A DNA stretch of 64,000 nucleotides from contig PGYQ01000001.1 in the NCBI GenBank assembly GCA_002839745.1, forward strand, positions 16,775-80,774, written 5' to 3'. This document shows, piece after piece, positions 2,867-60,945 of the stretch. The notes beneath the pieces are model-generated. The model searched no databases, was not told where the DNA came from, and saw only the letters and a program-made list of their open reading frames with translations. Source of the stretch: Candidatus Kuenenbacteria bacterium HGW-Kuenenbacteria-1 (GTDB lineage Bacteria > Patescibacteriota > Patescibacteriia > UBA2591 > PGYQ01). A program made the position numbers and the translations under genes. The stretch's first letter is position 1. Each line of letters opens with the position of its first letter.

Positions 2867-4030
2867 ATGAAAAAAATAATTGCCTTATCTATTATATTTT
2901 TTTGTTTTTTATTATTTCCATTTTCTTTTTCGCAAGCAATTGTCCAAAAAACAGGAGAAAGTATTCGTCTTAATTCAAATGAAATTATTGATGATGATTT
3001 TATTGCTTTCGGACAAAATATAGAAATTAATGGATTAATTAAGGGTGATCTTTTTGTTTTTGCCAAAAATATTACCATCAATGGAAATATTGAAGGAGAT
3101 GTTATTGGTTTTACTCAACAAATTACAATTAATGGAAATGTAAATGGGAATATTAGAATTTTAGGAGAAACTATAAATTTTAATAATCAAATAGATAAAA
3201 ATGTTAATGTTTTGGGACAAAATATTATTTTTTCTGAGAAAAGTAAGATTAAAAAAAATTTATTAATTTTGGGAGAAAGCATTGATGTAAATGGAAAAAT
3301 TGATGGCAATATTTTTGGCAATGGGAAAAAAATTTCTTTGGCCGGAGAAAATAATAAAAATGTTTATTTAAATACAACAGCTCTTGTTTTACAACCTAAA
3401 ACAATTATTAATGGAAATTTAGATTATGTTGCGTCTCAAAAAGCGGAAATAAAATCTGGCGCTCAAATTTTAGGAAAAACTTTGTATAAAATTCCATCCT
3501 TTGAAAAACAAGAAAAAAAATATACTATTGCTTTTTTCTTTTGGAAATTAGTTTCTTTGTTTGGGTTTTTAATTATTGGTTTAATTTTTATTTCTTTATT
3601 TCCTAAGAAAACATTGGAAATAATTAATCAAATTAAAAAAACGCCATGGAAAAATTTAGGCTATGGAATAATTTGTTTTATTGTTGTGCCGATAATCGCG
3701 CTTTTTTTAATTGCTATGCTCATTGGAATTCCATTGGCTTTTATTGGAATGTGTTTATATTTCATCTTTTTATATTTAGCTCAACTTTTTGTTGGTTTAA
3801 CAATTGGCGTAGAAATAGATAAAAAAATTAGAAAACCAAAAGAGATCGTTTTGCCAGCTGGCGAACAAGAACAAAAAAATAATTTAATTTGGCCAATGAT
3901 TTTAGGAATGATTATTTTAATAATTTTATTTAACATTCCTTATTTAGGTTGGGCTTTTAAATTAATAGTTATTTGTATGGGATTGGGAGGAATGATAGGG
4001 ATAGTTAAAAGTTCAAAGTGTAAAGTGTAA
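2867..4030 (+). CDS. Hypothetical secreted/membrane protein with bactofilin-like beta-helical I-x-I-N-G-N-I-x-G-D repeats and C-terminal multi-TM domain
   Basis: Signal peptide MKKIIALSIIFFCFLLF; repeats ITINGNIEGDV/ITINGNVNGNI/IDVNGKIDGNI with ~18-aa period; four hydrophobic helices at C-terminus; last codons are heptamer repeats (KSSKCKV). Confidence 0.5.
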   Translation: MKKIIALSIIFFCFLLFPFSFSQAIVQKTGESIRLNSNEIIDDDFIAFGQNIEINGLIKGDLFVFAKNITINGNIEGDVIGFTQQITINGNVNGNIRILGETINFNNQIDKNVNVLGQNIIFSEKSKIKKNLLILGESIDVNGKIDGNIFGNGKKISLAGENNKNVYLNTTALVLQPKTIINGNLDYVASQKAEIKSGAQILGKTLYKIPSFEKQEKKYTIAFFFWKLVSLFGFLIIGLIFISLFPKKTLEIINQIKKTPWKNLGYGIICFIVVPIIALFLIAMLIGIPLAFIGMCLYFIFLYLAQLFVGLTIGVEIDKKIRKPKEIVLPAGEQEQKNNLIWPMILGMIILIILFNIPYLGWAFKLIVICMGLGGMIGIVKSSKCKV

Positions 4031-4117
4031 AGTTAAAGAAATTTTAAATTTTTCTGTTATCTTAATCGAGGTTATATTTTGGTTTTGACACTCAAATATA
4101 ACAATAATTCTTTGCGC

Positions 4118-5972: not shown

Positions 5973-7568
5973 TTATTCTACAATTTTTCCATCAAATACA
6001 TTTAAAATATTATTTAAAAATTTATCTTGATTTTCTTCAAGAAAACCATTTTTTATAGGAAGAATTTCTGTTTTAAGAATAACTTTTTGTTTTAAAATAT
6101 CTTCTAAAATATTTTCAATTATTTCTTTATTTTTTCTATCATTAATTCTTTCCTGATAAAACTTATGTTCAAATCCAATTTGCAATATATTTTCTTTAAA
6201 GGAAAGTAACTCTGTTGTTCTTAAAAAAGTAAAAATAGAATGATTATGTTTTTTAATTTTTTCTAAAATTTTTCCCCATTTTTCTTTAATTTCTTCTAAT
6301 TTAATTTTAGATTCTTTATTTAAGGTTTCAGATTTCAGATTTTCTGTTTCATTATTTTTTGCTTTTCGCTTTTCGCTTTTCGCTTCATTGTTTTCTGGGC
6401 GTACGCAAGGGTATGCCCTTACAAAATTGTTTTTTTGTTCCATTGTTTTATTGTTTTCTTGTTCTATTATTTCATCATTTTCTATAATTTCTAAAATAGC
6501 TATTTCTAATGGCAATTGAATAATATCTGTTTCGCCTAATTCTTTTTGTGTTTTAATTAAAATTTCAATTGCTTTGCTTAATTTTTTTATATTGATTTTT
6601 TCCGTTAATTTTAAAATTTTCTTTTCAATTTCTTTATCCATTTCTTGAGAGAAGTTGTTAAGGTTGAGATCTATTTTTATTAATAAAATTTTTCGCATTA
6701 TTTCAATACAATCATTAATAAAATATTTTAAATCAATCCCTTGTTCTACTAATTTATTAATTAAAATTAAAGTGGCTTTTTTATTGTTTTCAAAAAGATG
6801 TTCTAATAATTCTAAAATTAAATTAAAGTTAGAGTGTGGGAGAATCAATTCGGCTTGTTCAAGATTTATTTCTTTTTCTCCTAAAACTAAAATTTGACCA
6901 AGAAGACTTTCGGCATTTCGAAGATATCCTTGGCTTTGATGAGCGATATTTTTTATAATTTGAGGATCAACTTTTATTTTTTCTAAATCACAAATTTTTT
7001 CTAATTTTTTTGTAATTTCTAAAAAATTAATTTTTTTAAAATTAAATTGTTGGCAACGAGAAATAATTGTTTCTGGGATTTTGTGAATTTCAGTGGTGGC
7101 TAAAATAAAAATAATATGAGCCGGTGGTTCTTCTAAAATTTTTAAAAGAGCGTTAAAAGCGGAAAGAGAAAGCATATGAGCTTCATCAATAATAAAAATT
7201 TTATAATTAAGATTATGAGGGATAAAACGGGAATTTTCAATAATATTTTCTCGAACATTATCTACTCCTGTTTGTGAAGCAGCATCAATTTCCATTATAT
7301 CTAAAGATTTTCCTTCGCTAATTTCATTACAAAAAGTACATTTATTACAAGGTTCTGCATCTTTTTTATTTCTGTTTTTACAATTAATCGCTTTGGCTAA
7401 AAGACGAGCGCAAGTGGTTTTTCCTGTTCCTCTAGGCCCAGAAAATAAATAGGCATGATTAATTTGATTAGTTTTAATTTGATTTTCCAAAGTAATTTTA
7501 ATATGATCTTGACCAACCAAATCTTTAAAAGTTTGTGGTCTATATTTTCGGTAAAGTGTTAAATTCAT
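5973..7568 (-). CDS. dnaX: DNA polymerase III subunit gamma/tau
   Basis: YRKYRPQTFKDLVGQDH...GPRGTGKTT Walker A, zinc module CNKCTFC; C-terminal half carries in-frame heptamer and palindromic insertions. Confidence 0.9.
   Translation of the reverse strand: MNLTLYRKYRPQTFKDLVGQDHIKITLENQIKTNQINHAYLFSGPRGTGKTTCARLLAKAINCKNRNKKDAEPCNKCTFCNEISEGKSLDIMEIDAASQTGVDNVRENIIENSRFIPHNLNYKIFIIDEAHMLSLSAFNALLKILEEPPAHIIFILATTEIHKIPETIISRCQQFNFKKINFLEITKKLEKICDLEKIKVDPQIIKNIAHQSQGYLRNAESLLGQILVLGEKEINLEQAELILPHSNFNLILELLEHLFENNKKATLILINKLVEQGIDLKYFINDCIEIMRKILLIKIDLNLNNFSQEMDKEIEKKILKLTEKINIKKLSKAIEILIKTQKELGETDIIQLPLEIAILEIIENDEIIEQENNKTMEQKNNFVRAYPCVRPENNEAKSEKRKAKNNETENLKSETLNKESKIKLEEIKEKWGKILEKIKKHNHSIFTFLRTTELLSFKENILQIGFEHKFYQERINDRKNKEIIENILEDILKQKVILKTEILPIKNGFLEENQDKFLNNILNVFDGKIVE
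6397..6418. repeat. GC-rich palindromic element (gggcgtacgcaagggtatgccc) inserted in-frame in dnaX
   Basis: Near-identical to the intergenic copy at ~28199-28220 (gggcgtacccttgcgtacgccc); encodes RAYPCVRP in DnaX linker. Confidence 0.6.
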
Positions 7569-7581
7569 AATAAATTTTTAA

Positions 7582-8691
7582 TTAAAAAATTCTTAAAAGT
7601 GCTTTTAAAATTTTTCCACCAAATTTAACGATATCTTGATAAGTGATGATTATAATTAATAGCATTAATAAAGCGAATCCAATACTATGAGTGATATTTT
7701 CTATTTCTTGATTAATTGGTTTTCTTCTAATTTTTTCAATTATTAAAAAAAGTATTCTTCCACCATCTAATGCTGGAAATGGGATAAAATTAATAACTGC
7801 TAAATTTAAAGAAAGTAAGGCGGTAAATTGAAGAATGTAAATAAATCCTAAATTAACCATCTGTTTTGTCATTATAACAATTCCAACAGGTCCAGAAATA
7901 TCTGCTGATAATGTTTGATGAATAATTAAATTTTTAATTAATAAACAAAAGGCTTTAATTATTTCAAAGGTTAAAAAAATGGTTGTTTTGGCTCCTAAAT
8001 AAATGGATTGATGCCAAGAATATGAAATAATTCCAGTACTAACTAATTGAGTACCTATTATTTTTCCATTGACTTTTTCAGAAAATTCTGGATAAATTTT
8101 TTTTTCTAAAAACTTATCTCCTCTTTTAATTTTTATTATGGTTTCTTTTTCAATATTTTTTATATATTTTTGAAATAAAGAAACATCTTCAAATTTTTGT
8201 CCATCTACTTCAGAAATAACATCGCCTAATTGAATTCCTGCTTTTTGAGCTGGAGAGTTTTCTAAAACTGACATAATTTGAATTTGTGGCTGATTGATTT
8301 TTTTTGCTCCTTTAATAGTTTCTTTATTTAATGCTTGTGGAAAACCAATCATAAATCCAATAGAAAATAATATGAATGCTAAAAAAACATTCATGATTAC
8401 GCCAGCAGAAATAATGGCTACTTTTTCTGAAATTTTTTTTGAAACAAAACTATCTTTTTCAGAAGGATTGCCACCTTCATCTCCTTTGATTTTACAAAAT
8501 CCTCCCAAAGGAATCCAATTTAAAGAAAAAAGCGTTCCTGCTTTTTTGATACCAAAAATTCGTGGAGGAAATCCAAAACCAAATTCTTCTACAGTTACAC
8601 CCATTTTTCGAGCAACAAAAAAATGTCCAAATTCATGGACAAGAACCAATAGCCCTAAAATTACAATAAAAACAATAATAGTTAAAAACAT
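7582..8691 (-). CDS. rseP: RIP site-2 metalloprotease RseP with PDZ domain
   Basis: HEFGHFFVARKMGV (HExxH), PDZ segment, LDGG motif near C-terminus, multiple TM helices. Confidence 0.85.
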   Translation of the reverse strand: MFLTIIVFIVILGLLVLVHEFGHFFVARKMGVTVEEFGFGFPPRIFGIKKAGTLFSLNWIPLGGFCKIKGDEGGNPSEKDSFVSKKISEKVAIISAGVIMNVFLAFILFSIGFMIGFPQALNKETIKGAKKINQPQIQIMSVLENSPAQKAGIQLGDVISEVDGQKFEDVSLFQKYIKNIEKETIIKIKRGDKFLEKKIYPEFSEKVNGKIIGTQLVSTGIISYSWHQSIYLGAKTTIFLTFEIIKAFCLLIKNLIIHQTLSADISGPVGIVIMTKQMVNLGFIYILQFTALLSLNLAVINFIPFPALDGGRILFLIIEKIRRKPINQEIENITHSIGFALLMLLIIIITYQDIVKFGGKILKALLRIF

Positions 8692-8726
8692 ATTTAAGAA
8701 ATTAAAAATTATAAATTAAAAATTAA

Positions 8727-9284
8727 TTAGATTGTCATTATTTCTTTTTCTTTTTTTATTTCTATTTCTTTAAGTTTTTCATTATATTCTTCAACAACTT
8801 TATCTAATTCTTTGAAATAATAAAATTTATCATCTTCTGAAATTTGTTTTTCTTGTTCTTGTTTTTGTATTTCTTTTTTTATTTCATCTCTAATTTGTCG
8901 AAAACTTACTCTTGTTTGTTCAAGTTTTTGATGAACTATTTGGACTATTTCTTTTCTTAGTTCTCCTGTCATTGGCGGAATATTTAGTCTAATCATTGTT
9001 CCATCTACTGCGCAAGGAAGATTCAGACTAGATATTGAAATCGATTTTTCAATATCTTTTAAAAGATTTTTATCCCATGGTTGAATAATAATTGTTTTTG
9101 CGTCAGATATATTAATACTAGCTAATTGTTTTAAAGGCATTTGTCCATCATAAGCCTTAATTATTAAATCTTCAACTAGCGCTGGATTAGCTCGGCCAAT
9201 TCTTAATTTTTCTAAATCTTTTTCAAAAAAAATAATTGTTTTTTCAAATTCTGGTTTGTGCGATTCAATCAAATTTAGTTCCAT
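8727..9284 (-). CDS. frr: Ribosome recycling factor
   Basis: 185 aa; RIGRANPALVEDL and overall RRF architecture. Confidence 0.9.
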   Translation of the reverse strand: MELNLIESHKPEFEKTIIFFEKDLEKLRIGRANPALVEDLIIKAYDGQMPLKQLASINISDAKTIIIQPWDKNLLKDIEKSISISSLNLPCAVDGTMIRLNIPPMTGELRKEIVQIVHQKLEQTRVSFRQIRDEIKKEIQKQEQEKQISEDDKFYYFKELDKVVEEYNEKLKEIEIKKEKEIMTI

Positions 9285-14854: not shown

Positions 14855-14945
14855 TGTCATTCCCTCGTAGGCGGGAATCTAGATTAAGATTTTTTTCTAG
14901 ATCCCCGGGTCTCGTCCTCAGAGGACTCGCCCGAGGATGACAAAG
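14855..14945. repeat. GC-rich composite palindromic repeat (tgtcattccctcg...cgaggatgaca family)
   Basis: Nested inverted repeats (ttccc/gggaa, atctaga/tctagat, gtcctc/gaggac); related copy at 36283-36360. Confidence 0.6.
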
Positions 14946-14953
14946 AATTTTTT

Positions 14954-15029
14954 GCGGGTGTAGCTCAATTGGTAGAGCGCTGGTCTCCAAAACCAGAGGT
15001 TCCAGGTTCAAGTCCTGGCTCCCGTGCCA
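14954..15029 (+). tRNA. tRNA-Trp (anticodon CCA)
   Basis: GTAGCTCAATTGGTAGAGC D-arm, CTGGT-CTCCAAA-ACCAG anticodon arm, CCAGG-TTCAAGT-CCTGG T-arm, encoded CCA; one T-T mismatch in acceptor stem. Confidence 0.8.
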
Positions 15030-18313: not shown

Positions 18314-20356
18314 ATGAATAAATTACTCACAATTTTTATTATTACTTTATTTTTTGGTTTCGCATTTCCAATAATGGCTTTAGTTCCAAATGATACTTAT
18401 TATTCAAAACAATGGTATTTACCGATAATTAAAGCAGATAAGGCTTGGGAAATTGCTAATAATTATTCTTCAGAAATTATTGTCGCTGTTTTAGATGCTG
18501 GTGTTGATATTAATCATCCAGATTTAAAAAATAATATTTGGACTAATCCTAATGAAATAAAAGGAAATGGAATTGATGATGATAAAAATGGTTATATAGA
18601 TGATATTAATGGTTGGGATTTTATTGAAGATTCAAATGATCCAAATCCTAAATTTCTTTCTAAATTTACTAAAGAAGCTATTAATCATGGGACAATAATA
18701 ACTGGAATAATAGCTGCTGAAGGCAATAATAATCAAGGAATAATTGGAATAAGTCCTAAAGCAAAAATTATGTGTTTGCGAGTTTTAAATGAGCAAGGAA
18801 ATGGAAACGACAGTTATATTGCTAAAGCTGTTGATTATGCTGTTAAAAATAAAGCGCGTGTTTTAAATTTAAGTTTTGTTGGAAGTAAAAAATCAGAACA
18901 ATTATCAAAAGCAATTGAACGCGCTTGGAAAGCAGGATTAATTATTGTTACAGCAGCAGGAAATGGTGATAAAAAATCAGAAACTCAAATACAAGGGATA
19001 AATTTAGATGAAATACCTTTATATCCAATTTGTTATAATGAGCAAGAAAATAAAATAATTGGAGTAGGCGCTGTTGACAATAAAGATCAAAAGACAAATT
19101 TTTCCAATTTTGGAAAAAATTATGTGGATATTTCTGCGCCGGGAATTGATTTTTATGGAACTCAGGTTTATAATTCCAATGAAGCGAATTATAAAGAATA
19201 TTATGGAGGATTTTATTCTGGAACTTCAATAGCTGCACCTCAAGTTACAGCAACAGCTGCTTTAATTTGGAGTCAATTTCCAAATTTAACAAATAAAGAA
19301 GTTCAAGATTTTATTTTAGATGGAGTTGATAATATTAGTGAACAAAATCCTGATTATAAAGATAAATTAGGAAAAGGAAGATTAAATGTTTATCAAGCTT
19401 TAAAATTGGCTCAAAGTTCCGAAGAAATTTTAAAAGGTAAAAAAATTTTTATAACATCTGATAAAGACAATAAAGTATATTTTAAAAAATTTAATATTGA
19501 TACTAATTTAAATTATCAACAAATAATTTATAGTCAACATTTTGATGGTGGCATTAATATGGCAATAGGAGATATTGATAAAGATGGAAAAGATGAAATT
19601 GTTACTGGTCCAAATATAGGCGAACCTTTAATAAAAATTTTTGATACAAATGGAAATTTAAAATTTCAATTTTTGGCTTATGATTTAGATTATAATAAAG
19701 GTATTAGTGTGGCAATAGGAGATATTGATGGAGATGGAAAAGATGAAATTATTACTGGTCCTAAGTCAGGCGAACCTTTAATAAAAATTTTTGATACAAA
19801 TGGAAATTTAAAATTTCAATTTTTGGCTTTTAATTCAAAATTTAAAGGCGGGGTTAATATAGCAACAGGCGATATTAATGGTGATAAACGAGATGAATTA
19901 ATTGTTAGTATTGCTTCGCAAGAAAGTTCTTATGTGAGAGTTTATAAATTACAAGAAAATGATTTATATCTTGAATTTCAAACAATGATTTTTAATTCAA
20001 AATTTAAAGGCGGGGTTAATATAGCAACAGGCGATATTAATGGTGACAAACGAGATGAATTAATTGTTAGTATTGCTTCGGAAGAAAGTTCTTATGTAAG
20101 AGTATATAAAATACAAGAAAATGATTTATATTTTGAATTTCAATTTATGGCTTATAGTTTTGATTTTAAAGGTGGGGTTAATATAGCAACAGGCGATATT
20201 GATGAAGACGGAAAAGATGAAATTATTACTAGTCAAAGAGAAGCAGGACAATCAATAGTGAAAATTTTTGATAAAAATGCTAATTTAAAAACCGAATTTA
20301 AATCTTTTGATTCTGAATTTCAAGGAGGAATTAATGTGGCAATTGGTAGTTTGTAG
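18314..20356 (+). CDS. Secreted subtilisin-like serine peptidase (S8) with C-terminal FG-GAP/VCBS-like repeats
   Basis: Signal peptide; catalytic triad motifs DAGVDINHPDL, HGT, GTSIAAPQV; repeated GDIDGDGKDEIITGP units. Confidence 0.85.
   Translation: MNKLLTIFIITLFFGFAFPIMALVPNDTYYSKQWYLPIIKADKAWEIANNYSSEIIVAVLDAGVDINHPDLKNNIWTNPNEIKGNGIDDDKNGYIDDINGWDFIEDSNDPNPKFLSKFTKEAINHGTIITGIIAAEGNNNQGIIGISPKAKIMCLRVLNEQGNGNDSYIAKAVDYAVKNKARVLNLSFVGSKKSEQLSKAIERAWKAGLIIVTAAGNGDKKSETQIQGINLDEIPLYPICYNEQENKIIGVGAVDNKDQKTNFSNFGKNYVDISAPGIDFYGTQVYNSNEANYKEYYGGFYSGTSIAAPQVTATAALIWSQFPNLTNKEVQDFILDGVDNISEQNPDYKDKLGKGRLNVYQALKLAQSSEEILKGKKIFITSDKDNKVYFKKFNIDTNLNYQQIIYSQHFDGGINMAIGDIDKDGKDEIVTGPNIGEPLIKIFDTNGNLKFQFLAYDLDYNKGISVAIGDIDGDGKDEIITGPKSGEPLIKIFDTNGNLKFQFLAFNSKFKGGVNIATGDINGDKRDELIVSIASQESSYVRVYKLQENDLYLEFQTMIFNSKFKGGVNIATGDINGDKRDELIVSIASEESSYVRVYKIQENDLYFEFQFMAYSFDFKGGVNIATGDIDEDGKDEIITSQREAGQSIVKIFDKNANLKTEFKSFDSEFQGGINVAIGSL
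19829..20152. repeat. Near-identical ~162-bp tandem duplication inside the S8 peptidase repeat domain
   Basis: Two consecutive copies encoding FNSKFKGGVNIATGDINGDKRDELIVSIAS[Q/E]ESSYVRVYK[L/I]QENDLY. Confidence 0.6.
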
Positions 20357-21565: not shown

Positions 21566-22120
21566 ATGTTTGAAATACGTATTCATGGTCGAGGTGGACA
21601 GGGAGCAAAATCATCTGCTCAATTTATTGCCGAAGCGGCCTTAAAAGAAGGAAAATTTATTCAAGCTTTTTCTGAATATGGACCTGAACGATCAGGCGCT
21701 CCTGTTGTTGCTTATGTCCGAATTTCTGATCAAGAAATTAAAACTCATGAACCTGTGATTTGTCCAAGTGTTATTTTGGTTTTAGATGAAACTTTAATAA
21801 AAGCCGTTGATGTAGCTAAGGGATTAAAGAAAGATGGAATTTTAATAATTAATTCATCAAAAAATGCTGATGTTCAATTTCGTCATCTTTTTCAAAATAT
21901 AAAAATTTTAGATGCTTCAAGTATTGCTTTAGAATTTATTGGAAAAGACAAACCCAATACTGCAATGTTGGGCGCATTGGTCAAAATAACGCAAGTAGTA
22001 AAATTAGAAAATTTAATTAAGGTAATTAAAAAACATTTTTTAATTAAAGTGGGGGAGCAAGGTGCTAAAGCAAATATAACAGCAGTAAAGAAAGGATACT
22101 TAAGAAATTATAAATTATGA
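21566..22120 (+). CDS. porC: Pyruvate:ferredoxin oxidoreductase gamma subunit
   Basis: MFEIRIHGRGGQGAKSSAQFIAEAALKEGKFIQAFSEYGPERSGAP matches PorG/PorC N-terminus. Confidence 0.85.
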   Translation: MFEIRIHGRGGQGAKSSAQFIAEAALKEGKFIQAFSEYGPERSGAPVVAYVRISDQEIKTHEPVICPSVILVLDETLIKAVDVAKGLKKDGILIINSSKNADVQFRHLFQNIKILDASSIALEFIGKDKPNTAMLGALVKITQVVKLENLIKVIKKHFLIKVGEQGAKANITAVKKGYLRNYKL

Positions 22121-22149
22121 ATTATAAATTAAATCGTAAATCTAAAATT

Positions 22150-24202: not shown

Positions 24203-25126
24203 ATGGATTTAAAAATATTAACTCAAAAAATTCAAGAACAAAATCGTTTTGTTTGTGGACATCGGACGTGCGCTGGTTGCGCTATTCCAATTATTGTTAG
24301 AACAATTTTGTCTGCCAGTAAAGATCCAGTGGTTGTTGTAAGCGCTACTGGTTGTCTTGAAATAGTTTCTAGCGTTTATCCTCAAACATCGTGGAATGTT
24401 CCATGGATGCACAATGCTTTTGAAAATACTTCTGCGACAATTTCTGGAATTGAATGTGCCTATTCTTTTTTAAAGAAAAAAGGGAAATTAAAAAAGAAAA
24501 TAAATTTTGTTGTTTTTGGCGGAGATGGCGGAACCTATGACATTGGATTGCAATCTTTGTCTGGCGCTTTGGAACGAGGGCATAATTTTGTTTATGTTTG
24601 CTATGACAATGAAGCCTATATGAATACTGGAAATCAACGATCTTCTTCAACGCCATATGGCGCGAGCACGACTACTACGCCAGAAGGAAAAACACATCAT
24701 GGGAAAGAAGTTTTTAAAAAAGATTTAATTAAAATTGTTGCGGCTCATAATATTCCTTATGTTGCTCAATCCGCTGTTCATTATTGGTCTGATTTATATC
24801 AAAAAGCTGAAAAGGCTTTTCAAGTTAATGGTCCGGCAGTGTTAAATGTTTTTTCGCCTTGTCAATTAAATTGGAAATTTCCTTGTGATTTAACAATTCA
24901 AATTTCAAAAATGGCTGTTGAAACTTGTTTGTGGCCTTTGTATGAAATAGAAAATAAACAATATAAATTAAATTATCAACCAAGAGAAAAGTTGCCAGTT
25001 GAAGAATTTTTAAAAATGCAAAAAAGATTCTCCCATCTTTTCAAACCAGAAAATAAAAAAATTATTAAAACAATCCAAGAGAAAGTGGATGAGAAATGGG
25101 AGGAGTTAAGAAATTATAAATTATAA
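24203..25126 (+). CDS. porB: Pyruvate:ferredoxin oxidoreductase beta subunit (TPP-binding)
   Basis: GHRTCAGCAIP and GGDGGTYDIG TPP motifs. Confidence 0.85.
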   Translation: MDLKILTQKIQEQNRFVCGHRTCAGCAIPIIVRTILSASKDPVVVVSATGCLEIVSSVYPQTSWNVPWMHNAFENTSATISGIECAYSFLKKKGKLKKKINFVVFGGDGGTYDIGLQSLSGALERGHNFVYVCYDNEAYMNTGNQRSSSTPYGASTTTTPEGKTHHGKEVFKKDLIKIVAAHNIPYVAQSAVHYWSDLYQKAEKAFQVNGPAVLNVFSPCQLNWKFPCDLTIQISKMAVETCLWPLYEIENKQYKLNYQPREKLPVEEFLKMQKRFSHLFKPENKKIIKTIQEKVDEKWEELRNYKL

Positions 25127-25340
25127 ATTAAGAAACCCCCTTAATCCCCCTTATCAGGGGGACAGAATTGATTAGCCCCTTCGATAAAGAAGTTGGGGAT
25201 TTAATTAGCCCCCTTGATAAAGGGGGTTGGGGGATTTCTTAAAGACAAAAGAAACCCCCTTAATCCCCTTTATCAGGGAGACTTTACGGAAGAAGGATTT
25301 TCAAAATTATTTTTATTTTTTGTAGAACATCCCAACCGTA
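25127..25340. repeat. Cluster of GC-rich palindromic repeats (aaaccccYttaatcYccYttatcagggRgac and attagcccccttgataaagggggttggggg families)
   Basis: Three or more hairpin units; shares tttttatttttttgtagaacatcc block and the tcccYttRtcagggagac unit with 28440-28556; unit also found in-frame at 39436-39476. Confidence 0.65.
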
Positions 25341-27999: not shown

Positions 28000-28650
28000 T
28001 ATATTGTTATTTTATTACATTTTAATTTAAAAATCTAATTAAAAGACTGACTGTGGGCGATTACATGGAATCGGCCTACAGGATTTTCCATTGAATTTTT
28101 TTACCATTTTGTAGGGGCGGGTTTTATGCCCGCCCTTTTTTTAGAGACCCTACGTAAAATTGTGTCTGATATAATAAAAATTATTATTGACGTATCCGTA
28201 GGGGCGTACCCTTGCGTACGCCCAGAAATAAAAAACAAATAATTTAATTTAATGGGAAATTTTGTAGGGGCGTATTACAATACGCCCCTACAAAATGCAA
28301 ATTGTTATGCAATACAATTCCGAAATTTTTTTCCTTTTCTTCCTTGCTTCTTTTCTTTTGCTTCTTCTTTTTAGCTAATTTTAGCTACTAGTCCATAGAC
28401 TGTTCTATGGACTAAGAAATTTTATTCCATTCTAAATTCTATTTTTTATTTTTTGTAGAACATCCTAATTGTAGAGTAGTGGGGTAGATGAGAGCCTCTG
28501 CTCTCATCTTTTCAGAAATTAAGAAACCCTCTAAATCTCCCTTGTCAGGGAGACTTTTTAGTAAATATAAAATGCTAAATTGTGTTAAATTATGTTGACA
28601 ATTATGTTAAATTGTGTTTGTAGTTTTTATTATTTTAGATTAAAATATAA
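28000..28650. repeat. Gene-free, GC-enriched region packed with palindromic repeat elements
   Basis: Hairpins gggcgggttttatgcccgccc, gggcgtacccttgcgtacgccc, ttttgtaggggcgtattacaatacgcccctacaaaa (15-bp stem), tagtccatagactgttctatggacta, gatgagagcctctgctctcatc, tctcccttgtcagggaga; copy A of the dispersed motif at 28144-28182. Confidence 0.65.
28144..28182 (+). repeat. Dispersed motif copy A (gagaccctacgtaaaattgtgtctgatataataaaaatt)
   Basis: Matches copies at 37511, 56161, 59804 and inverted copy at 37620. Confidence 0.7.
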
Positions 28651-28715
28651 ATGACTTGTGCGTATTTTTTCATTTTAAACGCACCAAACTAAAGTCAAAA
28701 GGAGGTGACAAAGAA

Positions 28716-29285
28716 ATGAAAAGGGTAATAATGACAATAGTCGTAATAATACTATCTGCTCAGGCAAGAGCAGACAGTATGTTATTTACGACTGACTGGG
28801 TAAGTGGAACCCAGTCGGTTTCCGGTGGCGGTATAGAGTTTAATTGTACCGTCACTGTCGACCCCAGCTCCACGGAAGGATGCTGGGGTGTGGATTTTTA
28901 TGGGAGTTTTGAAGGGCTAACAAACCTTCAATTTCCCATATCAGCGTTTTGCGTTCAGAGCAAAACGCTTTTCGGGATTGGGAATTTATGGGTCCCACCC
29001 GGAAATTCTTTCACATTTTCGTACGAGATGCCTAACTCGTATGAGGCCGTAAGAGGGACCGCCACCTCTTACGCATATGTTCCTGTTCCTATAGGCTTTA
29101 CTCCTGGGTTAATAGACCTAGGGGTTGAGGACTCAGATTCTATTTGGGTCCCTCGATTGCGACCTGTTGGGCAACCACCTAGTGGCAATGCTGTTCCCGA
29201 GCCATGTACAATGGCTCTACTGGGAATAGGCACGGTTGGCTTAGTGGGTCTTAGACAAAAAGGGGGCAGGATAGGCGCTAAATAA
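28716..29285 (+). CDS. Secreted PEP-CTERM-anchored protein, G+C-rich (foreign composition)
   Basis: Strong SD aaggaggtg 8 nt upstream; signal peptide MKRVIMTIVVIILSAQARA; C-terminal VPEP-CTMALLGIGTVGLVGL-RQKGGR is a PEP-CTERM sorting signal; visibly higher G+C than flanks. Confidence 0.6.
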   Translation: MKRVIMTIVVIILSAQARADSMLFTTDWVSGTQSVSGGGIEFNCTVTVDPSSTEGCWGVDFYGSFEGLTNLQFPISAFCVQSKTLFGIGNLWVPPGNSFTFSYEMPNSYEAVRGTATSYAYVPVPIGFTPGLIDLGVEDSDSIWVPRLRPVGQPPSGNAVPEPCTMALLGIGTVGLVGLRQKGGRIGAK

Positions 29286-32895: not shown

Positions 32896-33159
32896 TTTAT
32901 TTTTGCTATAATCCACTTTGGATTACGAAATGTAATTTAAGAAAGCGCCAAATGCAAAATTATAAATCCTAATCCGCTAGCTGGCGGACTTAAAAAAGTT
33001 GAAAGTTAAAAGTTAAAAGTTAAAAGTTATTGTATTCGTTTTGCTCATAAATAATAATAAAATTATTTGGTGCGAAGTAACACCTTAATTAAAAATTTAT
33101 AATTTCTTGCAAAGTATCTATTTTATTTATAATTTATAATTTAAAATTTATAATTTCTT

Positions 33160-36282: not shown

Positions 36283-36360
36283 TTGTCATTCCTTCGATGG
36301 CAATTAGAAATTTATTTAGTCCATGGACCAGTCTATGGACTATTGGCTAAAATTAGCAAT
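36283..36360. repeat. Palindromic repeat related to 14855-14945 and 28370-28420 elements
   Basis: ttttgtcattccttcgatggc and tagtccatggaccagtctatggacta / ggctaaaattagc units. Confidence 0.55.
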
Positions 36361-36649: not shown

Positions 36650-37539
36650 TTATTTTAATAATTTATTTTTAAAGTTAAATCCAAAATTTTTAGGACTAAA
36701 TAGTTTTAATCCTTTAGGTGTTCGCCATAATTTGCAACATTTTTTTCCAAAAACTTTCACCTTTTTATCTAAGGAAATATCACTATTATATAAAGGATAA
36801 TTATTAATATCTGTACATATAATTAAATCGGGGCAAGTCAGGATTATTTTTTTATTAATCCAAAATAGGAGATATTCATTTTTAATAAACAATCGTCCTT
36901 CTGAGTTTATATTTTTAATCCTAATATCTTTAGTAATAAACCCATTCTTTTCTTTTTCTTTTATAGAAGAAACTGTTCCTTCATATAATAATTTTAATTC
37001 TTCATTTTTAAAAGATCATTAAAATTATTAGAATTAATAATTTTGCCAATTTTCAAAGCTTCTGACACAGTGCCGGTTTCTATTTTCTTTTCCAAAGTTT
37101 TTTTAGAAAAAGGGTAACCCACAACAAAAGTTTTTTCTTTAGAAAAAGTTCGCAAAATTCTTTCCTCTTCTTTAAAAGAAATTGATTTAGTAAAAATTGC
37201 TATATTGCCTTCTGTTCCAACTAAAACAAGAGGTGTTCTATTTAGTTTAAAGAGACTAATTGTTTCCAAAAAAATTTCCGGAGCAGACTTTCCACCTACA
37301 AAATCTGCATCAACAATTGGTAATTTTAATTCTGAAGCTATAAAAAAAGCAGATGCTAACGAAGTTGGACCAATTTCTACTGGGATTATTCCTTTTACCT
37401 TCTTTCCTAAATAATTTAATAATTCTTTAACTCCTTTTTTAATATAAGTTACAGGATCAATGTCTTTTATGGATGATCCTACCCCAAAGGCCGTGATAAA
37501 TAAATAAAGAGAGACCCTACATAAAATTGTGTCTGGCAT
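36650..37539 (-). pseudogene. Hypothetical gene split by a -1/+2 frameshift at ~36995 (ORFs 36994..37539 and 36650..36892 are contiguous in shifted frames)
   Basis: Reading frame of ORF 36650..36892 stays open upstream to overlap the last codons of ORF 36994..37539 at an A/T homopolymer; N-terminal codons come from dispersed motif copy B. Confidence 0.45.
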
Positions 37540-37646
37540 AGTAAAAATGTATAATTAATTTTGTCATAATAGTTAAAGTGTTTTAATAATAAATTTAATA
37601 TTTATTCTAGATAAAAAAAGCTAGACACACTTTTATGAACGGTCCC
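37511..37646. mobile_element. MITE-like unit: dispersed motif copy B (37511-37549, direct) and diverged inverted copy B' (37620-37646) about 100 bp apart
   Basis: gagaccctacataaaattgtgtctggcatagtaaaaatg vs reverse-complement gggaccgttcataaaagtgtgtctagc. Confidence 0.45.
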
Positions 37647-37779
37647 TTTTTTTTTTCGCCATTGGACAATCCCAATCCGTTGGCATCTCATCCACCTCCG
37701 AGACCTTTTGCCATGGGGGTAAAAGATCGGGAACCCTCATTGCGATCCATGTTTTTAGATCGTCTTTTTTTATTTTCAT
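37602..37779 (-). CDS. Small (~58 aa) G+C-rich ORF with strong SD, homologous at its 3' end to the IS-remnant ORF at 56150 (coordinates approximate)
   Basis: aaggagg-N7-ATG; ...DCPMAKKKGTVHKSVSS parallels ...CSPRLQKKKETLHKIISG at 56150; likely a decayed transposase-associated fragment rather than a functional gene. Confidence 0.3.
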
Positions 37780-38407: not shown

Positions 38408-40870
38408 ATGCAACATCAAGGATTAAAAGAAAATGAAATTAAAAAATTAAGAGAAAAATTTGGGGAAAATTCTTTGCCAGCTGAAAAACAATTTTCTTTT
38501 ATAACAATTTTTTTCTCGCAATTTAAAAGTCCATTGATTTATATTTTATTTTTTGTCGGGCTGATTTCTTTATTTTTCAAAGAATATATTGACGCTGTTT
38601 TAATCGTTTTAGTTGGTTTATTTAACGCTTTGCTCGGTTTTTTTCAAGAATATAACAGTCAAAAAACCTTGGTTGCTTTAAAAAATATTATTAAACCTAA
38701 AGCGCTTGTTATTAGAGATGGTTGCAGAAAACAGATTGAAGCCAAAGAATTAGTGCCTGGTGATTTGGTTATTATTGGTTCTGGAGATAAAATTCCAGCT
38801 GACGGTGAATTGATTGAGAGTTTAAATTTGTTAGTTAATGAAGCGATTTTAACTGGCGAAGATGAGGCTGTTGCTAAAAAGTTAACTGATAATAAGTTGT
38901 TTATGGGCGCTACTGTTATTTGGGGTAATGGCATTATGAAAATTAGCAAAATTGGTCTTGATACTGAAATTGGTAAAATTGGTTCTAGTATAGTTGAAAT
39001 AAAAGAAAGTAAAACCCCAATACAAGTCGCGTTAGATAAATTCGCTAAAAATTTGTTATTTATAATTTTTATAATTTGTTTAATAATTTTTATTACTGGC
39101 GTGCTTTATCAGGAAAATTTTTGGGCAATGCTTAGAACCTCAATAGTGCTGTCAGCGGCTGCCATACCAGAAGGTTTACCAGTTGCTATTACTATTATTT
39201 TAACTTTGGGCATGAGACGAGTTTTAATTAAGAAAGGTTTAGTTAGAAAACTTTTATCAATTGAAACATTAGGATCAACTTCTGTAATTTGCGTTGATAA
39301 AACAGGAACATTAACTGAAGGAATTATGAAAGTTGTTAAGTCTGATTTTTTTGATAACGACAAGGCATTTTTGGCTTTAACATTGGTTAATAATCAGCGG
39401 ATGAATTTAGAAATAGCTCTTTGGGATTATGTAAGGAAAAATCCCTCTAACCCCCTTTATCAAGGGGGGACTGCTCAAGATCCACAGGAAATTTTTAACA
39501 GTCACTTGAGAATTTACGAAGAGCCGTTTGATAGCGAGAAAAAATACGCTTTAAGCATTAATAAAATAAATAATAAAAATACAGCTTTTGTTTTAGGAGC
39601 GCCGGAAATTGTTTTATCGTTTTGTCAATTATCAGCTCAAGAGTCAGTTGATACTTTAAAAAAAATAGATGATTGGGCCAGCAAGGGTTTACGGATTTTG
39701 GGAGTTGGTTTTAAAGAAAAAGGGGAGTTAAAAGAAAAAAAAGATTTTGTATGGTTAGGTTTGGTAGCAGTTGAAGATCCTTTGCGTTCAGGCGCTAAAG
39801 AGGCTATAGAACAAGCCATGCAAGCTGGTATTAAAATTAAAATTATTACAGGAGATCATAGCAAGACAGCTGAAAAAGTCGCTAGAAATTTAGGTTTTAA
39901 AATTGGACCAAACAATATTTTGTCAGGCAATGAGCTTGGCATGATTTCTGATCAAGAATTAAAAGACAGAATAGATGATATTATTTTATTTAGTCGTGTT
40001 TTGCCTCATCAAAAATTAAAAATAGTAGAAGCTTTGCAAGCTAAAAAAGAAATTATCGCTATGACTGGCGATGGAGTTAATGATGCTCTTGCTTTAAAAA
40101 AAGCGGATATTGGAGTAGTTATGGGCGCTGGTGCTGAAGTGGCAAAAGAAGTCGGGGATTTGATTTTATTAGACAATAATTTTAAAACCATTTTAACAGC
40201 TGTAGAAGAGGGCCGTTTAATTTTTTCTAATATCAAAAAGGTTGTTGCTTATGCCTTATCTAACGCTTTTGTTGAAATTGTTTTGATATTTGGAGCAATA
40301 ATACTTAATTTTCCTTTGCCATTAACAATAGCTCAAATAATATGGATTCAGCTTATTTGCGATGGTCCTCCTGATATTATATTAGGTTTTGAACCTAAGG
40401 ATAGAGATTTAATGAAAGAAAAGCCTATTGATAATAAAAAAGATGGTTTTTTATCTAAGTCTGTTATGTTTTTAATTATTGCTGTAAGTTTAAGCATTGG
40501 CTTATTAACTTTATTTTTATTCTGGTATTTTTATAATAGAACCAATAGTTTAATTTTAGCTCAAACTATTGCTTTTACTAGTGTTGCTTTTGTTGGTTTG
40601 TTTTATATTTTTTCTTTTAAAAATCTTTCTAAACCTTTATTTAAAATAAATAATTTCTTTGGTAATAAATATCTATTATGGAGCGTGCTTTACGGTTTTG
40701 TGTTAATTTTCGTCGCTTTATATGTTCCAGCTTTAAATAAAATTTTAAACACTGTTCCTCTTAATTTTTTTCACTGGCTGTTTGTTTTAGGGATTGCTAT
40801 TATTTCAATTTTGATTATTGAGATATTCAAGTTTTTTTTAATAAAAAAACAATTAGTATTAAAAATTTAA
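38408..40870 (+). CDS. P-type cation-transporting ATPase (P2-type, Ca2+/Mg2+-like)
   Basis: CVDKTGTLTEG phosphorylation motif, TGDGVNDALALKKADIGV hinge, 8-10 TM helices. Confidence 0.85.
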   Translation: MQHQGLKENEIKKLREKFGENSLPAEKQFSFITIFFSQFKSPLIYILFFVGLISLFFKEYIDAVLIVLVGLFNALLGFFQEYNSQKTLVALKNIIKPKALVIRDGCRKQIEAKELVPGDLVIIGSGDKIPADGELIESLNLLVNEAILTGEDEAVAKKLTDNKLFMGATVIWGNGIMKISKIGLDTEIGKIGSSIVEIKESKTPIQVALDKFAKNLLFIIFIICLIIFITGVLYQENFWAMLRTSIVLSAAAIPEGLPVAITIILTLGMRRVLIKKGLVRKLLSIETLGSTSVICVDKTGTLTEGIMKVVKSDFFDNDKAFLALTLVNNQRMNLEIALWDYVRKNPSNPLYQGGTAQDPQEIFNSHLRIYEEPFDSEKKYALSINKINNKNTAFVLGAPEIVLSFCQLSAQESVDTLKKIDDWASKGLRILGVGFKEKGELKEKKDFVWLGLVAVEDPLRSGAKEAIEQAMQAGIKIKIITGDHSKTAEKVARNLGFKIGPNNILSGNELGMISDQELKDRIDDIILFSRVLPHQKLKIVEALQAKKEIIAMTGDGVNDALALKKADIGVVMGAGAEVAKEVGDLILLDNNFKTILTAVEEGRLIFSNIKKVVAYALSNAFVEIVLIFGAIILNFPLPLTIAQIIWIQLICDGPPDIILGFEPKDRDLMKEKPIDNKKDGFLSKSVMFLIIAVSLSIGLLTLFLFWYFYNRTNSLILAQTIAFTSVAFVGLFYIFSFKNLSKPLFKINNFFGNKYLLWSVLYGFVLIFVALYVPALNKILNTVPLNFFHWLFVLGIAIISILIIEIFKFFLIKKQLVLKI
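39436..39476. repeat. GC-rich palindromic element inserted in-frame in the P-type ATPase
   Basis: aaaaatccctctaaccccctttatcaaggggggactgc matches intergenic family at 25141-25170, 25255-25285, 28520-28556; encodes NPSNPLYQGGTAQ. Confidence 0.65.
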
Positions 40871-43652: not shown

Positions 43653-44606
43653 ATGTTTTCTTTAAAACAATTAATTAATAATTTTTTAGAATATCTTGAA
43701 ATAGAAAAAAATCGTAGTCCAAAAACAATTAGAAATTATAAATTTTATTTAGAAAGATTTCTTAATTGGGCAAAGGAACCAAAACCAGAAGAAATTAATT
43801 TAGAAATGATTCGTCAATATCGGCTTTGGCTAAATCGATTTCAAAATTTAAGAGCAGAAGGTTTAAAAAAAGATACTCAAAATTATCATTTAATTGCTTT
43901 GCGTTCTTTTTTAAAATATCTCTCTAAAAGAGATATTCAAAGCTTATCTTCTGAAAAAATTGAATTAGCTAAAGTTTCTGAAAGATCAATAGAGTTTTTA
44001 GAAGGAAAAGATTTAGAAAATTTTTTGGAAGCACCATTCAAAGTTCAAAGTTCAAAATTCAAAGTTCAAAGTAAAAGAAAATTTGACCTCATTCAATTGA
44101 GAGATAAGGCAATTTTAGAATTATTTTTTTCTACTGGATTGCGAGTTTCTGAATTAATTAAATTAACTAAGGAACAAATTAATTTAGATAAAGATGAGTT
44201 TACAGTTCGAGGTAAAGGGAATAAACTAAGGATTATTTTTTTATCTCAGCAAGCTAAGTATTGGTTAAAAAAATATTTAGAAGCTAGAAATGATATGGAA
44301 ATTATTTTATTTATTAGGCATGATAAATTATCAAAAAATAAACAAATAAATAATTTAACTCCAAGAAGTATTCAGCGTCTTGTAAAAAAATATGCTAAAA
44401 TAGCCGGGATTACAAAAGAGATAACTCCTCACACAATCCGTCATAGTTTTGCTACAGATCTTTTAACAACTGGAGCTGATATACGTTCAGTGCAAGCTTT
44501 ATTAGGACACGCGTCTATTACAACGACTCAAATTTATACCCATGTAACAGATAAACATTTAAAAGAAGTTTATAGCGCTTTTCATGACAAAAGACGAAAA
44601 AAATAA
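43653..44606 (+). CDS. Tyrosine site-specific recombinase (XerC/XerD family)
   Basis: RHSFATDLLTTGADIRSVQALLGHASITTTQIYTHV catalytic R-H-R-Y region; carries in-frame heptamer repeat (FKVQSSKFKVQSK). Confidence 0.85.
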   Translation: MFSLKQLINNFLEYLEIEKNRSPKTIRNYKFYLERFLNWAKEPKPEEINLEMIRQYRLWLNRFQNLRAEGLKKDTQNYHLIALRSFLKYLSKRDIQSLSSEKIELAKVSERSIEFLEGKDLENFLEAPFKVQSSKFKVQSKRKFDLIQLRDKAILELFFSTGLRVSELIKLTKEQINLDKDEFTVRGKGNKLRIIFLSQQAKYWLKKYLEARNDMEIILFIRHDKLSKNKQINNLTPRSIQRLVKKYAKIAGITKEITPHTIRHSFATDLLTTGADIRSVQALLGHASITTTQIYTHVTDKHLKEVYSAFHDKRRKK

Positions 44607-44730: not shown

Positions 44731-44770
44731 TTATAATTTATAATTTATAATTTATAAATTATAAATTATA
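44731..44770. repeat. Heptanucleotide tandem repeat (TTATAAT/TTATAAA, about 6 units)
   Basis: ttataatttataatttataatttataaattataaattata immediately after tRNA-Arg. Confidence 0.8.
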
Positions 44771-44851
44771 TTTTTTTTGCATTTTGCATTTTTTTAAAAA
44801 TAAGTTATAATAACTATTATATTTTTATTTTTCTTTTTTTTATTTTAAAAT

Positions 44852-59510: not shown

Positions 59511-59803
59511 TCAGAAAGGATAAATATCTGTCAAGCAAAAATTTACAAAGACGATAATATTTGTTAAACTTATAATTAAGAAATAGTTTTAGGCGGCGCG
59601 CCAGCTTTGCTGGCACGAAAAATTGCGGCGGCGAAAAAAGAAGCGGCGAAAGCGAGGGCGGGCAAAAATTCCTTCCTCCCAACCCTCTTCCTTTTTGCCC
59701 GCCCGAGCGTTCGGTTTCGGTTCTGCTACGCGAAACGCGGCAATCAGTCAGTTTCGTTCAAAAAAAAGGTTCGCGCATTTTCAAACAATGGGCACCAAAT
59801 TGG

Positions 59804-59901: not shown

Positions 59902-60909
59902 ATGCAAAAAGAATTAAAAACGTCAGATAAAAACAAGGCTACTTTTGAAGCGATTTCTCAAATTAAAGAACGCTTTGGTGAAGGATCAATTATGAAATTA
60001 GGTGAATCTAAAACAATGAAAGTAGAAACAATTCCTACTGGTTGTCTTTCTTTAGATATTGCCTTGGGAGTGATGGGTGTTCCTAGAGGACGAATAACGG
60101 AAATTTTTGGTTTGGAAGCTTCAGGGAAAACAACTTTAACTCAACATATAATTGCTGAGGTTCAAAAACAAGGCGGAATAGCTGCTTTTATTGATGCTGA
60201 ACACGCTCTTGATCCAGAATATGCTAAAAAAATAGGAGTTAATATTGATGAACTTTTAATTTCTCAGCCAGACACAGGAGAACAGGCTTTGGAAATTGTT
60301 GAAACATTAGTTCGTTCTAATGGTATTGATGTAATTGTAATTGATTCTGTTGCCGCGTTAACACCAAAAGCTGAAATAGAAGGGGAAATGGGAGATTCGC
60401 ATATGGGCTTGCAGGCAAGATTAATGAGTCAGGCTTTAAGAAAATTAACAGCAATTGTGAGTAAAACAAAAACTGCGGTAATTTTTATTAATCAAGTAAG
60501 AATGAAAATTGGGGTATTTTTTGGAAATCCAGAAACCACGACTGGTGGTATGGCTTTAAAATTTTATTCTTCAGTTCGAATTGAAGTGAGAAAAGCAGTA
60601 CAAATTAAACAAGCGGAGAAAATTATTGGTAATCGAGTTAAAGCTAAAATAGTTAAAAATAAAGTTGCCGCTCCTTTTAAAGTTTGTGAATTTGATATAA
60701 TGTATAATGAAGGAATTTCTATTACCGGTGATCTTTTAGATTTAGGAGTAGAACATAAAGTGATTTCTAAAACAGGAAATTCTTATTCTTTTAAAGAAAC
60801 AAAATTAGGTGTTGGTCGTGAAGTAACAAAGAATTTTTTAAAAGAAAATTCTAAATTACAAAAAGAAATTAGAGAGGAAATTTTAAAAACCATAAAAGAT
60901 GAATTATAA
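59902..60909 (+). CDS. recA: Recombinase RecA
   Basis: [17 protein letters not shown] Walker A, L1/L2 loop regions, 335 aa. Confidence 0.95.
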
Positions 60910-60945
60910 ATTATAAATTTAAAATTAATTTTATTTGTAAATTTT

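Follow-up and report, generated by a model that had tools for sequence, protein, structure and literature searches.

Palindromic repeats in the window and their in-frame copies

The stretch of DNA analysed, henceforth referred to as the window, comprises 64,000 nt of contig PGYQ01000001.1 from Candidatus Kuenenbacteria bacterium HGW-Kuenenbacteria-1, a member of the Candidate Phyla Radiation (CPR; Patescibacteria). Genomes of this group are small and are often called streamlined. The window contains two unrelated families of short GC-rich palindromic repeats, termed family A and family B, and a copy of each lies in frame within a protein-coding gene: family A in a gene for a P-type cation ATPase and family B in dnaX. 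The part of the source genome covered here amounts to 81 kb, i.e. the window extended by ~9.4 kb on its upstream and ~8 kb on its downstream side. HGW-Kuenenbacteria-1 contains no fewer than three classes of palindromic repeat, two of which have changed the proteins of conserved genes.

Because the background GC content is 27%, GC-rich hairpins are conspicuous in the window. Six GC-rich perfect hairpins were found under strict settings, compared to 0.05 expected from shuffles, and all but one belong to family A or family B. The copies are mostly intergenic and lie in two nests at 25.1-25.3 kb and 28.1-28.6 kb. The individual copies and the two host genes are listed below, where REP denotes a repetitive extragenic palindromic sequence and ORF an open reading frame.

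5973..7568, minus strand: dnaX (DNA polymerase III gamma/tau), host gene; insert in the hypervariable linker from domain III to DnaX_C
6397..6422, minus strand: family B copy in dnaX; tag decayed to GTAA, one stem mismatch; encodes FVRAYPCVRPE
25134..25163, plus strand: family A unit, subtype A1; 8 nt past the stop codon of ORF 24203-25126
25175..25202, minus strand: family A unit, degenerate, AAATCCCCAACTTCTTTATCGAAGGGGC
25208..25237, minus strand: family A unit, subtype A2; left arm of an inverted dimer
25253..25282, plus strand: family A unit, subtype A1; right arm of the inverted dimer 25208-25282
28111..28135, plus strand: family B copy (putative GTAG-REP), intergenic; run of T directly after
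28198..28223, plus strand: family B copy (putative GTAG-REP), intergenic; closest match to the dnaX copy, ACCCTTGCGTACGCCCAGAA common to both
28264..28291, no strand assigned: family B copy (putative GTAG-REP), intergenic; perfect palindrome GTAGGGGCGTAttacaaTACGCCCCTAC, -27 kcal/mol, z = -9.5
28525..28554, plus strand: family A unit, subtype A1; compensated stem CTCCC/GGGAG
38408..40870, plus strand: P-type (Ca2+-type) cation ATPase, 820 aa, host gene; full-length ORF with all domains intact
39440..39471, plus strand: family A unit in the P-type ATPase ORF; hairpin CCCCCTT-TATC-AAGGGGG

The family A unit is ~30 nt long and reads AACCCCC-TWAAT-CCCCCTTATCAGGGGG-AC, i.e. a C-block (AACCCCC), a linker (TTAAT or TAAAT), a hairpin (CCCCCT-TATC-AGGGGG) and a terminal AC; three of its six reading frames are open. 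The core pattern was matched nine times in the window against 0.30 expected, a count reached by 0 of 100 shuffles, and the family B pattern GTARGGGCR was matched five times against 0.21 expected, so that both families are present far above chance. An nhmmer search of the 81 kb returned seven clear family A units, one of them coding. The intergenic repeats that the first-pass annotation had placed at 25141-25170, 25255-25285 and 28520-28556 are present, with boundaries refined to 25134-25163, 25253-25282 and 28525-28554, and the two minus-strand units at 25175..25202 and 25208..25237 had been overlooked. The inverted dimer 25208-25282 has a second copy, spacer CTTAAAGACAAAAG included, at a distance of ~33 kb in this genome (L153 1611-1687); the ~80-nt ORF-less doublet is thus itself a repeated unit. 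Each of the two nests also contains one copy of another short repeat, TTATTTTTTGTAGAACATCCYAAYYGTA, at 25318 and 28451.

The copy within the ATPase gene, originally reported at 39436-39476 as leaving the reading frame unbroken, was confirmed and delimited to 39440-39471. Its best match is the intergenic unit at 25208-25237, with 28 of 30 positions identical, one 1-nt gap and an exact run of 20 nt (AACCCCCTTTATCAAGGGGG). The net insertion is 27 nt (39443-39469), which adds the nine residues PSNPLYQGG and keeps the frame intact (N-PSNPLYQGG-TAQ). In an alignment of 23 ATPase sequences, a clean nine-residue gap was observed at this position in all 22 orthologues, including four relatives with 82-85% identity, and the empty site, GTTAAAAARCAAAA..., was found in the DNA of three of these four. 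Neither outcome that the first-pass annotation had named as refuting its reading, orthologues with the same residues and no repeat signature or a lack of genomic copies beyond chance similarity, was observed. The flanks of the site differ from those of the relatives at 5 of 12 bases before and 7 of 9 bases after the insert, in a gene that is otherwise ~90% identical, and the codons on both sides appear to have been replaced. A target-site duplication was looked for at the insertion site and none was seen. Flank divergence together with the lack of a duplication suggests an imprecise repair-like event or later divergence.

The insert is predicted to lie on a loop, as the first-pass annotation had proposed should be checked. 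In an AlphaFold model built from the 23 sequences (mean pLDDT, predicted local distance difference test, 69.8), residues 346-356 have pLDDT <50 and form a coil, placing the insert in a low-confidence coil of the nucleotide-binding (N) domain between predicted helices 333-344 and 359-365. A Protein Data Bank (PDB) search with a 140-aa fragment of the N domain gave no match; the full-length search gave an alignment to Listeria LMCA1, in which the insertion site falls in an N-domain segment of variable length.

Family B follows the consensus GTAGGGGCG...CGCCCC(TAC) and clusters at 28.1-28.3 kb. The tag sequence GTAGGGGCG occurs at 28111, 28198, 28264 and, on the minus strand, 28291, and its counterpart in the dnaX copy is GTAAGGGCA. 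The copies have stems of 7-10 bp and loops of 2-7 nt; for the intergenic ones, folding energies range from -15 to -27 kcal/mol (z -2.9 to -9.5). GTAG-tagged REPs are palindromes of 20-40 bp with a GC-rich stem of 6-13 bp, a short loop and GTAG at one end, and they are mainly extragenic and frequently clustered or paired. The terminal GTAG, the stem, the loop and the clustering all agree with the GTAG-tagged REPs, to which family B is assigned on these sequence features. This class is normally attributed to REP-associated tyrosine transposases (RAYTs; Y1/HUH), none of which was detected among the 10 unassigned window ORFs scanned.

A palindrome unrelated to the ATPase insert had been noted in frame in dnaX (6397-6418), matching one at ~28199-28220; both hold, at 6397-6422 and 28198-28223. 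Since the dnaX linker cannot be aligned between relatives, an empty site is undefinable and independent copies in relatives were used instead. The dnaX linker of another Kuenenbacteria metagenome-assembled genome (MAG; L149) contains two in-frame GTAG-REP copies, each encoding NNFVGATLARQ, and that of a second (L150) contains one, encoding RGVLQYAPT. These are independent copies. In a third (L151), dnaX is free of GTAG-REPs and four intergenic copies are located elsewhere. Both host genes had been described as essential; of the two, only dnaX clearly is.

Distribution of family A and its association with DUF559

Read on the minus strand, the family A unit is GTCCCCC-TGATAA-GGGGG-ATTAA-GGGGGTT, in which three blocks are separated by loops within the 1-6 nt range of the BoxC/PIT repeats. 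Holder et al. 2015 described these repeats as a three-block motif, found no transposase or integrase nearby, reported that motif loci are unusually unstable and did not detect the triplex in vivo (PMC4666352). Their TMECO form, reported from 262 genomes of proteobacteria, is described as "always intergenic" for E. coli K-12 (PMC4666352). The TMECO consensus, CCCTCNCCC N3-6 GGGNGAGGG N3 GGGNGAGGG with 9-nt stems, is not matched by family A, whose stems are C5-7/G5-7 homopolymers; family A therefore falls in the same architectural class without being a TMECO member.

Copies in other organisms were sought in one genome per species with a 19-nt pattern taken from the window family A, and in metagenomes with the 5' half of the unit, likewise taken from the window; the results below apply among the matches listed. 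The consensus AACCCCCT[A/C/T]AATCCCCCTT[A/G]TCAGGGGGAC was found in Poribacteria, Nitrospinota, Nitrospirales, Omnitrophota, Chloroflexota, Zixibacteria, Geobacter, cyanobacteria and other CPR bacteria, with dozens of copies in Poribacteria. The 11-base upstream flank AACCCCCTnAAT, which lies outside the search pattern, is conserved in Poribacteria, Nitrospinota, Nitrospirales, Omnitrophota, Chloroflexota, Zixibacteria, cyanobacteria and CPR bacteria. Such near base-for-base sharing across distant phyla points to horizontal spread or to a conserved recognition machinery. Inverted doublets are also present in Nitrospina, Zixibacteria and CPR loci. At four Poribacteria loci, the family A 30-mer is part of a ~120-nt repeat bounded by AGGACTTACGCA and TGCGTAAGTCCT, which has many copies per genome and is at times in tandem.

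Metagenome copies were located on contigs of 31-69% GC, and the complementary 3' arm was present in 81 of 115 distinct copies. Among those with the arm, the covarying stem position was C:G in 62, T:A in 16 and mismatched in three (p = 7.5e-14). As the 3' arm lies outside the search pattern, this covariation test is unbiased, and it indicates that the family A hairpin is under selection. Further in-frame copies were identified in genes of cell-wall synthesis enzymes. Two to three tandem units are located in frame in the gene for murein peptide ligase (Mpl) on two metagenome contigs of 57-60% GC (L213 5022-6494 and L229 2569-4005), between the conserved motifs GVSARL and FFVIEADEYD; the three tandem units of L213 (60% GC) give 45 residues in place of nine in the Neisseria enzyme (PDB 3EAG). 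MurB carries one in-frame unit at each of two other loci (L174 and L215).

Matches to known element classes were also considered. At Rfam gathering thresholds, the window matched only five tRNAs and 18 related loci matched nothing. RAGATH-25 scored 15-16 bits on the repeats against a threshold of 49, covering 20 of 50 positions, and was rejected as non-specific; other sub-threshold matches from permissive scans, among them microRNA families, reflect a resemblance between hairpins. The units do not form regular arrays with unique spacers, and the sole tandem case (L049) has identical "spacers", which excludes CRISPR. A phage origin was rejected because, in a viral scan yielding 23 loci, the full 30-mer was present in ~5 copies at four loci and the others were unrelated terminator-like hairpins. 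A literature search with the repeat sequence string returned only papers on silver nanoclusters.

Genes near family A units were compared by clustering ORFs within 1.2 kb of a unit across ~240 loci, metagenome loci included. An initial clustering without the distance restriction or the metagenome loci gave nothing recurrent and was dominated by Poribacteria paralogues. One recurrent small protein emerged, DUF559, and PF04480 was confirmed for eight neighbouring ORFs. At 14 loci of 34-68% GC, the DUF559 gene is located between units in inverted orientation. Hairpins with C and G arms were found within 100 nt on both sides of 9 of the 14 DUF559 ORFs, compared to 33 of 1151 other ORFs taken from the same repeat-enriched loci (odds ratio 61, p = 7e-11). 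The DUF559 ORF often ends inside the repeat, and in one case (L156) the stop codon is the linker TAA.

A second sample of 13 DUF559 genes was selected by homology only and comprised ten plasmid or chromosome records (Deinococcus, cyanobacteria, Alpha-, Beta- and Gammaproteobacteria) and Shapirobacteria-type CPR genes. Flanking inverted repeats of 21-107 nt were found at 7 of the 13, compared to none longer than 19 nt at 58 window genes. The repeat sequences are lineage-specific and the three-block architecture is common to them. In E. coli K-12, a canonical type A TMECO/BoxC is located ~190 nt downstream of the DUF559 gene ycjD (L290 5040-5840); a duplicated fragment of the ycjD 3' end lies between them, and an unrelated palindrome with a 17-bp stem lies upstream. 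With a density of 23 TMECOs per 4.6 Mb, chance would by estimate produce ~0.005 such coincidences. Of 5426 complete E. coli genomes, 3377 (62%) have the full ycjD region.

DUF559 is placed in the Vsr clade of PD-(D/E)XK enzymes, and PMC3424549 gives the same fold for a homing endonuclease in a phage group I intron (PDB 3r3p). A Caulobacter DUF559 protein shows Vsr-like nuclease behaviour linked to a methylated motif. No title or abstract in the DUF559 literature searched ties the family to flanking repeats, and no follow-up to Holder et al. naming an endonuclease was found in the later literature on triplex repeats.

Other repeats and features of the window

The third repeat superfamily in the genome is of the TGTC-tagged type, which belongs to the CGTC superfamily of REPs. 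An inverted dimer (TGTCATTCCCTCGTAGGCGGGAATCTAGA ... TCTAGATCCCCGGG...GAGGATGACA) occupies 14855-14945, directly upstream of the tRNA at 14954-15026, and a decayed copy, TGTCATTCCTTCGATGGCAATTAG, is located at ~36284-36307. A fourth palindromic repeat, TAGTCCATAGAC-tgt-TCTATGGACTA with the common flanks GCTAATTTTAGC, is found at 28374-28423 and 36308-36357 in opposite orientation, with 86% complementarity over 50 nt.

Heptamer tandem runs of the AAAGTTN and ATTATAA types occupy intergenic positions at many gene boundaries:

1372-1414, 4003-4045, 32997-33039, 44042-44084: heptamer tandem runs
8684-8727, 22090-22133, 44732-44775, 60886-60929: further heptamer tandem runs

A 209-aa ORF with a PEP-CTERM motif (28656-29285) has 46% GC in this 27% GC genome and adjoins the repeat nest of 28.1-28.6 kb; it may have been acquired by horizontal transfer, together with repeats. 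Two ORF fragments at 36650-37750 match the N- and C-terminal domains of an S-Me-THD-like protein and, together with a GC-rich stretch at 37677-37748, look like a broken gene (pseudogene). Upstream of recA, 167 nt at 59583-59749 have 57% GC and internal complementarity, with no credible ORF and no Rfam match, and may represent a non-coding RNA not yet described. The 680-aa ORF 18314-20356 contains, at 19484-20297, tandem repeats of 150-162 nt with identities of up to 93%, and encodes a repeat protein with recent unit duplication.

Origin of the repeats and comparison with known systems

The repeats of the window are probably orphan copies of two unrelated palindromic families, of which family A would derive from a DUF559 cassette and would spread by endonuclease-initiated breaks. 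Mobility is suggested by copy number and by presence or absence among relatives. Both families would multiply within the genome, and an occasional copy would enter coding DNA, where it could survive only if its length is a multiple of three, its frame is without a stop and the host protein tolerates the added loop. The survivors here would be those in the predicted disordered loop of the ATPase N domain and in the unstructured DnaX linker, with the hairpin kept for the purposes of the element and not for the host protein. Family A may be regarded as a short-stem form of the BoxC/PIT or "intrastrand triplex motif" type, with a C-block, a short loop (often TAA or TAG), a C-arm, a loop and a G-arm. 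In other bacteria, its units serve as inverted terminal modules of a ~0.5-kb cassette whose sole gene encodes DUF559, a Vsr-like PD-(D/E)XK endonuclease. The solo units and the ~80-nt inverted doublet of the window would then be non-autonomous derivatives of that cassette, spread by breaks followed by copying or repair. Clean cut-and-paste transposition would not be expected: the ATPase insert lacks a target-site duplication, and its neighbouring codons, before and after, appear to have been replaced.

The copies, the lineage-specific indel in the ATPase and its loop position, the spread over phyla, the covarying stem and the association with DUF559, which is statistical, are observations; the mobilising role of DUF559 and the copying mechanism we infer. 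Several findings weigh against this explanation. The 81 kb contain no DUF559 ORF, a Y1 transposase was not detected among the ORFs scanned there (the 10 unassigned ones of the window), and no HGW-Kuenenbacteria-1 protein is among the best 120 of 1021 DUF559 homologues, so that an enzyme acting in trans would be hypothetical for this organism. The arrangement around DUF559 varies, with the hairpin outermost at some loci and the C-block at others, and clear flanking repeats are missing from 5 of 14 and 6 of 13 DUF559 genes in the two samples. At 5-7 nt, the stems of family A fall short of the 9 nt of TMECO, and the triplex itself went undetected in vivo in the study of Holder et al. Both scans used window-derived patterns, and the taxon figures hold among the matches listed. 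Finally, the diverged flanks and missing duplication of the ATPase site fit recombination or repair equally well as a dedicated enzyme.

In one alternative, no dedicated enzyme is involved. Host processes would make the copies, be it replication slippage, a switch of template at stable hairpins or triplexes, conversion by an intergenic copy or illegitimate recombination. DUF559 genes would then simply reside in repeat-rich, unstable DNA or be cargo enclosed by two repeats. The state of the ATPase site, the lack of a DUF559 gene in the 81 kb and of a RAYT gene among the window ORFs scanned, the variable arrangement of repeats around DUF559 and the association of such motifs with local instability without mobility genes (PMC4666352) are all in keeping with it. 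It leaves unexplained, however, why a near-identical 30-mer occurs in distant phyla at 31-69% GC, and why two-sided flanking is enriched 61-fold at one small gene family whose ORFs end in the repeat. On balance, host processes alone are a somewhat unlikely source of the repeats.

Alternatively, DUF559 could be a host repair or defence nuclease, similar to Vsr, that acts on the repeats without mobilising them, the adjacent repeats being its substrates or regulatory sites. Its place in the Vsr clade and the behaviour of the Caulobacter protein would suit such a role, as would an architecture that is conserved over lineage-specific sequences, a pattern to be expected if protein and site co-evolve. 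Against it, inverted repeats on either side of a compact gene whose ORF runs into the repeat are the signature of a selfish cassette and not of a housekeeping gene, and gene-less doublets exist. The homing endonuclease of the same fold and the incomplete distribution of the full ycjD region among E. coli genomes also speak against this role, which we consider unlikely.

It is highly improbable that the ATPase hairpin is selected by the host, for instance as a translational pause or an mRNA stability element, or that its likeness to the intergenic repeats is fortuitous. It folds stably (-13.7 kcal/mol) and sits at a domain-internal loop, where pausing could conceivably aid folding, but its folding energy is unexceptional against shuffles (z = -0.78), the insert is missing from every orthologue aligned, and the identity with the intergenic copy extends to the non-hairpin C-block; the excess of core matches excludes chance. 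An assembly or binning artefact is barely credible: the genome is a MAG, and contigs may be joined wrongly at short repeats, but the identical 820-aa protein with the insert is present in the NCBI, JGI, ENA and Logan assemblies, overlapping JGI and ENA contigs (11 kb and 12.6 kb of overlap) show 0 mismatches to the window, and only 27 nt are involved in an otherwise collinear ORF.

A broader proposal can be offered tentatively, namely that BoxC/PIT/triplex-motif repeats in general are the terminal modules and gene-less derivatives of an unrecognised class of minimal selfish element, spread across bacteria, with DUF559 as its sole gene. If true, this would constitute a parallel to the REP/RAYT system with a different enzyme fold, assign a role to DUF559/YcjD, and explain the origin, the spread and the local genome instability of the repeats for which Holder et al. 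2015 found no mobility gene. Such elements would be able to remodel conserved proteins in frame, the ATPase here and Mpl and MurB elsewhere. Repeats that alter conserved proteins, as in the window, supply lineage-specific surface loops at little cost and are a pitfall for annotation and alignment. The DUF559 link makes the mobility of BoxC/PIT repeats a testable question, which can be approached directly by experiment with E. coli ycjD and the BoxC next to it.

Among known repeats, BoxC/PIT/TMECO (PMC4666352) is similar to family A in having, on one strand, a C-stem, a 3-6 nt loop, a G-stem, a short second loop (TTA in type A) and another G-stem, in occurring as singles and inverted pairs, and in its high conservation, wide patchy distribution and lack of an assigned function. 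The stems differ (CCCTCNCCC/GGGNGAGGG compared to CCCCC/GGGGG), and TMECO was reported from proteobacteria and as intergenic in E. coli K-12, whereas family A is found in CPR bacteria and many other phyla and in frame inside genes.

Family B shares the terminal GTAG, the 7-10 bp GC stem, the short loop and the clustering of the GTAG/CGTC REPs, which were surveyed by Di Nocera et al. in a set that includes no CPR genome (PMC3733652). In the REP/RAYT system (Nunvar 2010; Bertels and Rainey 2011, PMC3116915), the REPINs are similar to the family A doublet; a DUF559 gene between inverted family A units is comparable to a REPtron or TIRtron. Unlike that system, the gene associated with family A encodes a PD-(D/E)XK endonuclease and not an HUH tyrosine transposase, and no RAYT was found among the window ORFs scanned. 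The CGTC families have a CGTC or TGTC tag, a stem of 8-9 bp starting with AT, a loop of 4-5 nt and a CCA-like tail; family A differs from them in that its tag is mostly AGTC and its 5-7 bp stems start with C.

Miniature inverted-repeat transposable elements (MITEs) such as Correia, Nezha and Chunjie are gene-deleted, non-autonomous elements with two terminal inverted repeats, and the AT-rich mitochondrial genomes of fungi contain mobile GC clusters or double-hairpin elements with occasional in-frame coding insertions. Like these, the window repeats are short, probably non-autonomous, GC-rich hairpins that appear to spread in an AT-rich genome. The doublet 25208-25282 has the organisation of a REPIN or MITE, two inverted units and a short spacer repeated as a whole. 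Family A differs from MITEs in that no target-site duplication was seen at the ATPase site, the flanked gene of the putative parent cassette is DUF559 and no recognised transposase, and single half-elements of 27-30 nt would also spread.

Rickettsia palindromic elements (RPEs), described by Ogata et al. in 2000, are reportedly found in frame in conserved genes. They resemble the window repeats in being in-frame palindromes in conserved genes of a small AT-rich genome that persist as surface peptide segments. The likeness is one of behaviour only. RPE-1 is ~100-150 bp long, RPE-4 and RPE-6 are CGTC-type REPs, and the host is an alphaproteobacterial endosymbiont, compared to a free-living or episymbiotic CPR bacterium here. 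The RPE-like behaviour suggested in the first-pass annotation was thus borne out as in-frame peptide insertion, but such behaviour extends beyond Rickettsia. REPs of the GTAG and CGTC types that lie in frame and wholly inside ORFs were reported from several phyla by Di Nocera et al. 2013, enriched in genes of DNA synthesis, replication and repair, with RPE-4 and RPE-6 equated with CGTC REPs (PMC3733652). Since in-frame REPs are documented in many phyla, the basic phenomenon was already known; no report of them in CPR/Patescibacteria was found in the literature searched, and the in-frame repeats described here are a CPR instance of REP-type behaviour. What is added to the known systems is the placement of family A in a BoxC/PIT-like class across bacteria and its strong, apparently unreported association with DUF559.

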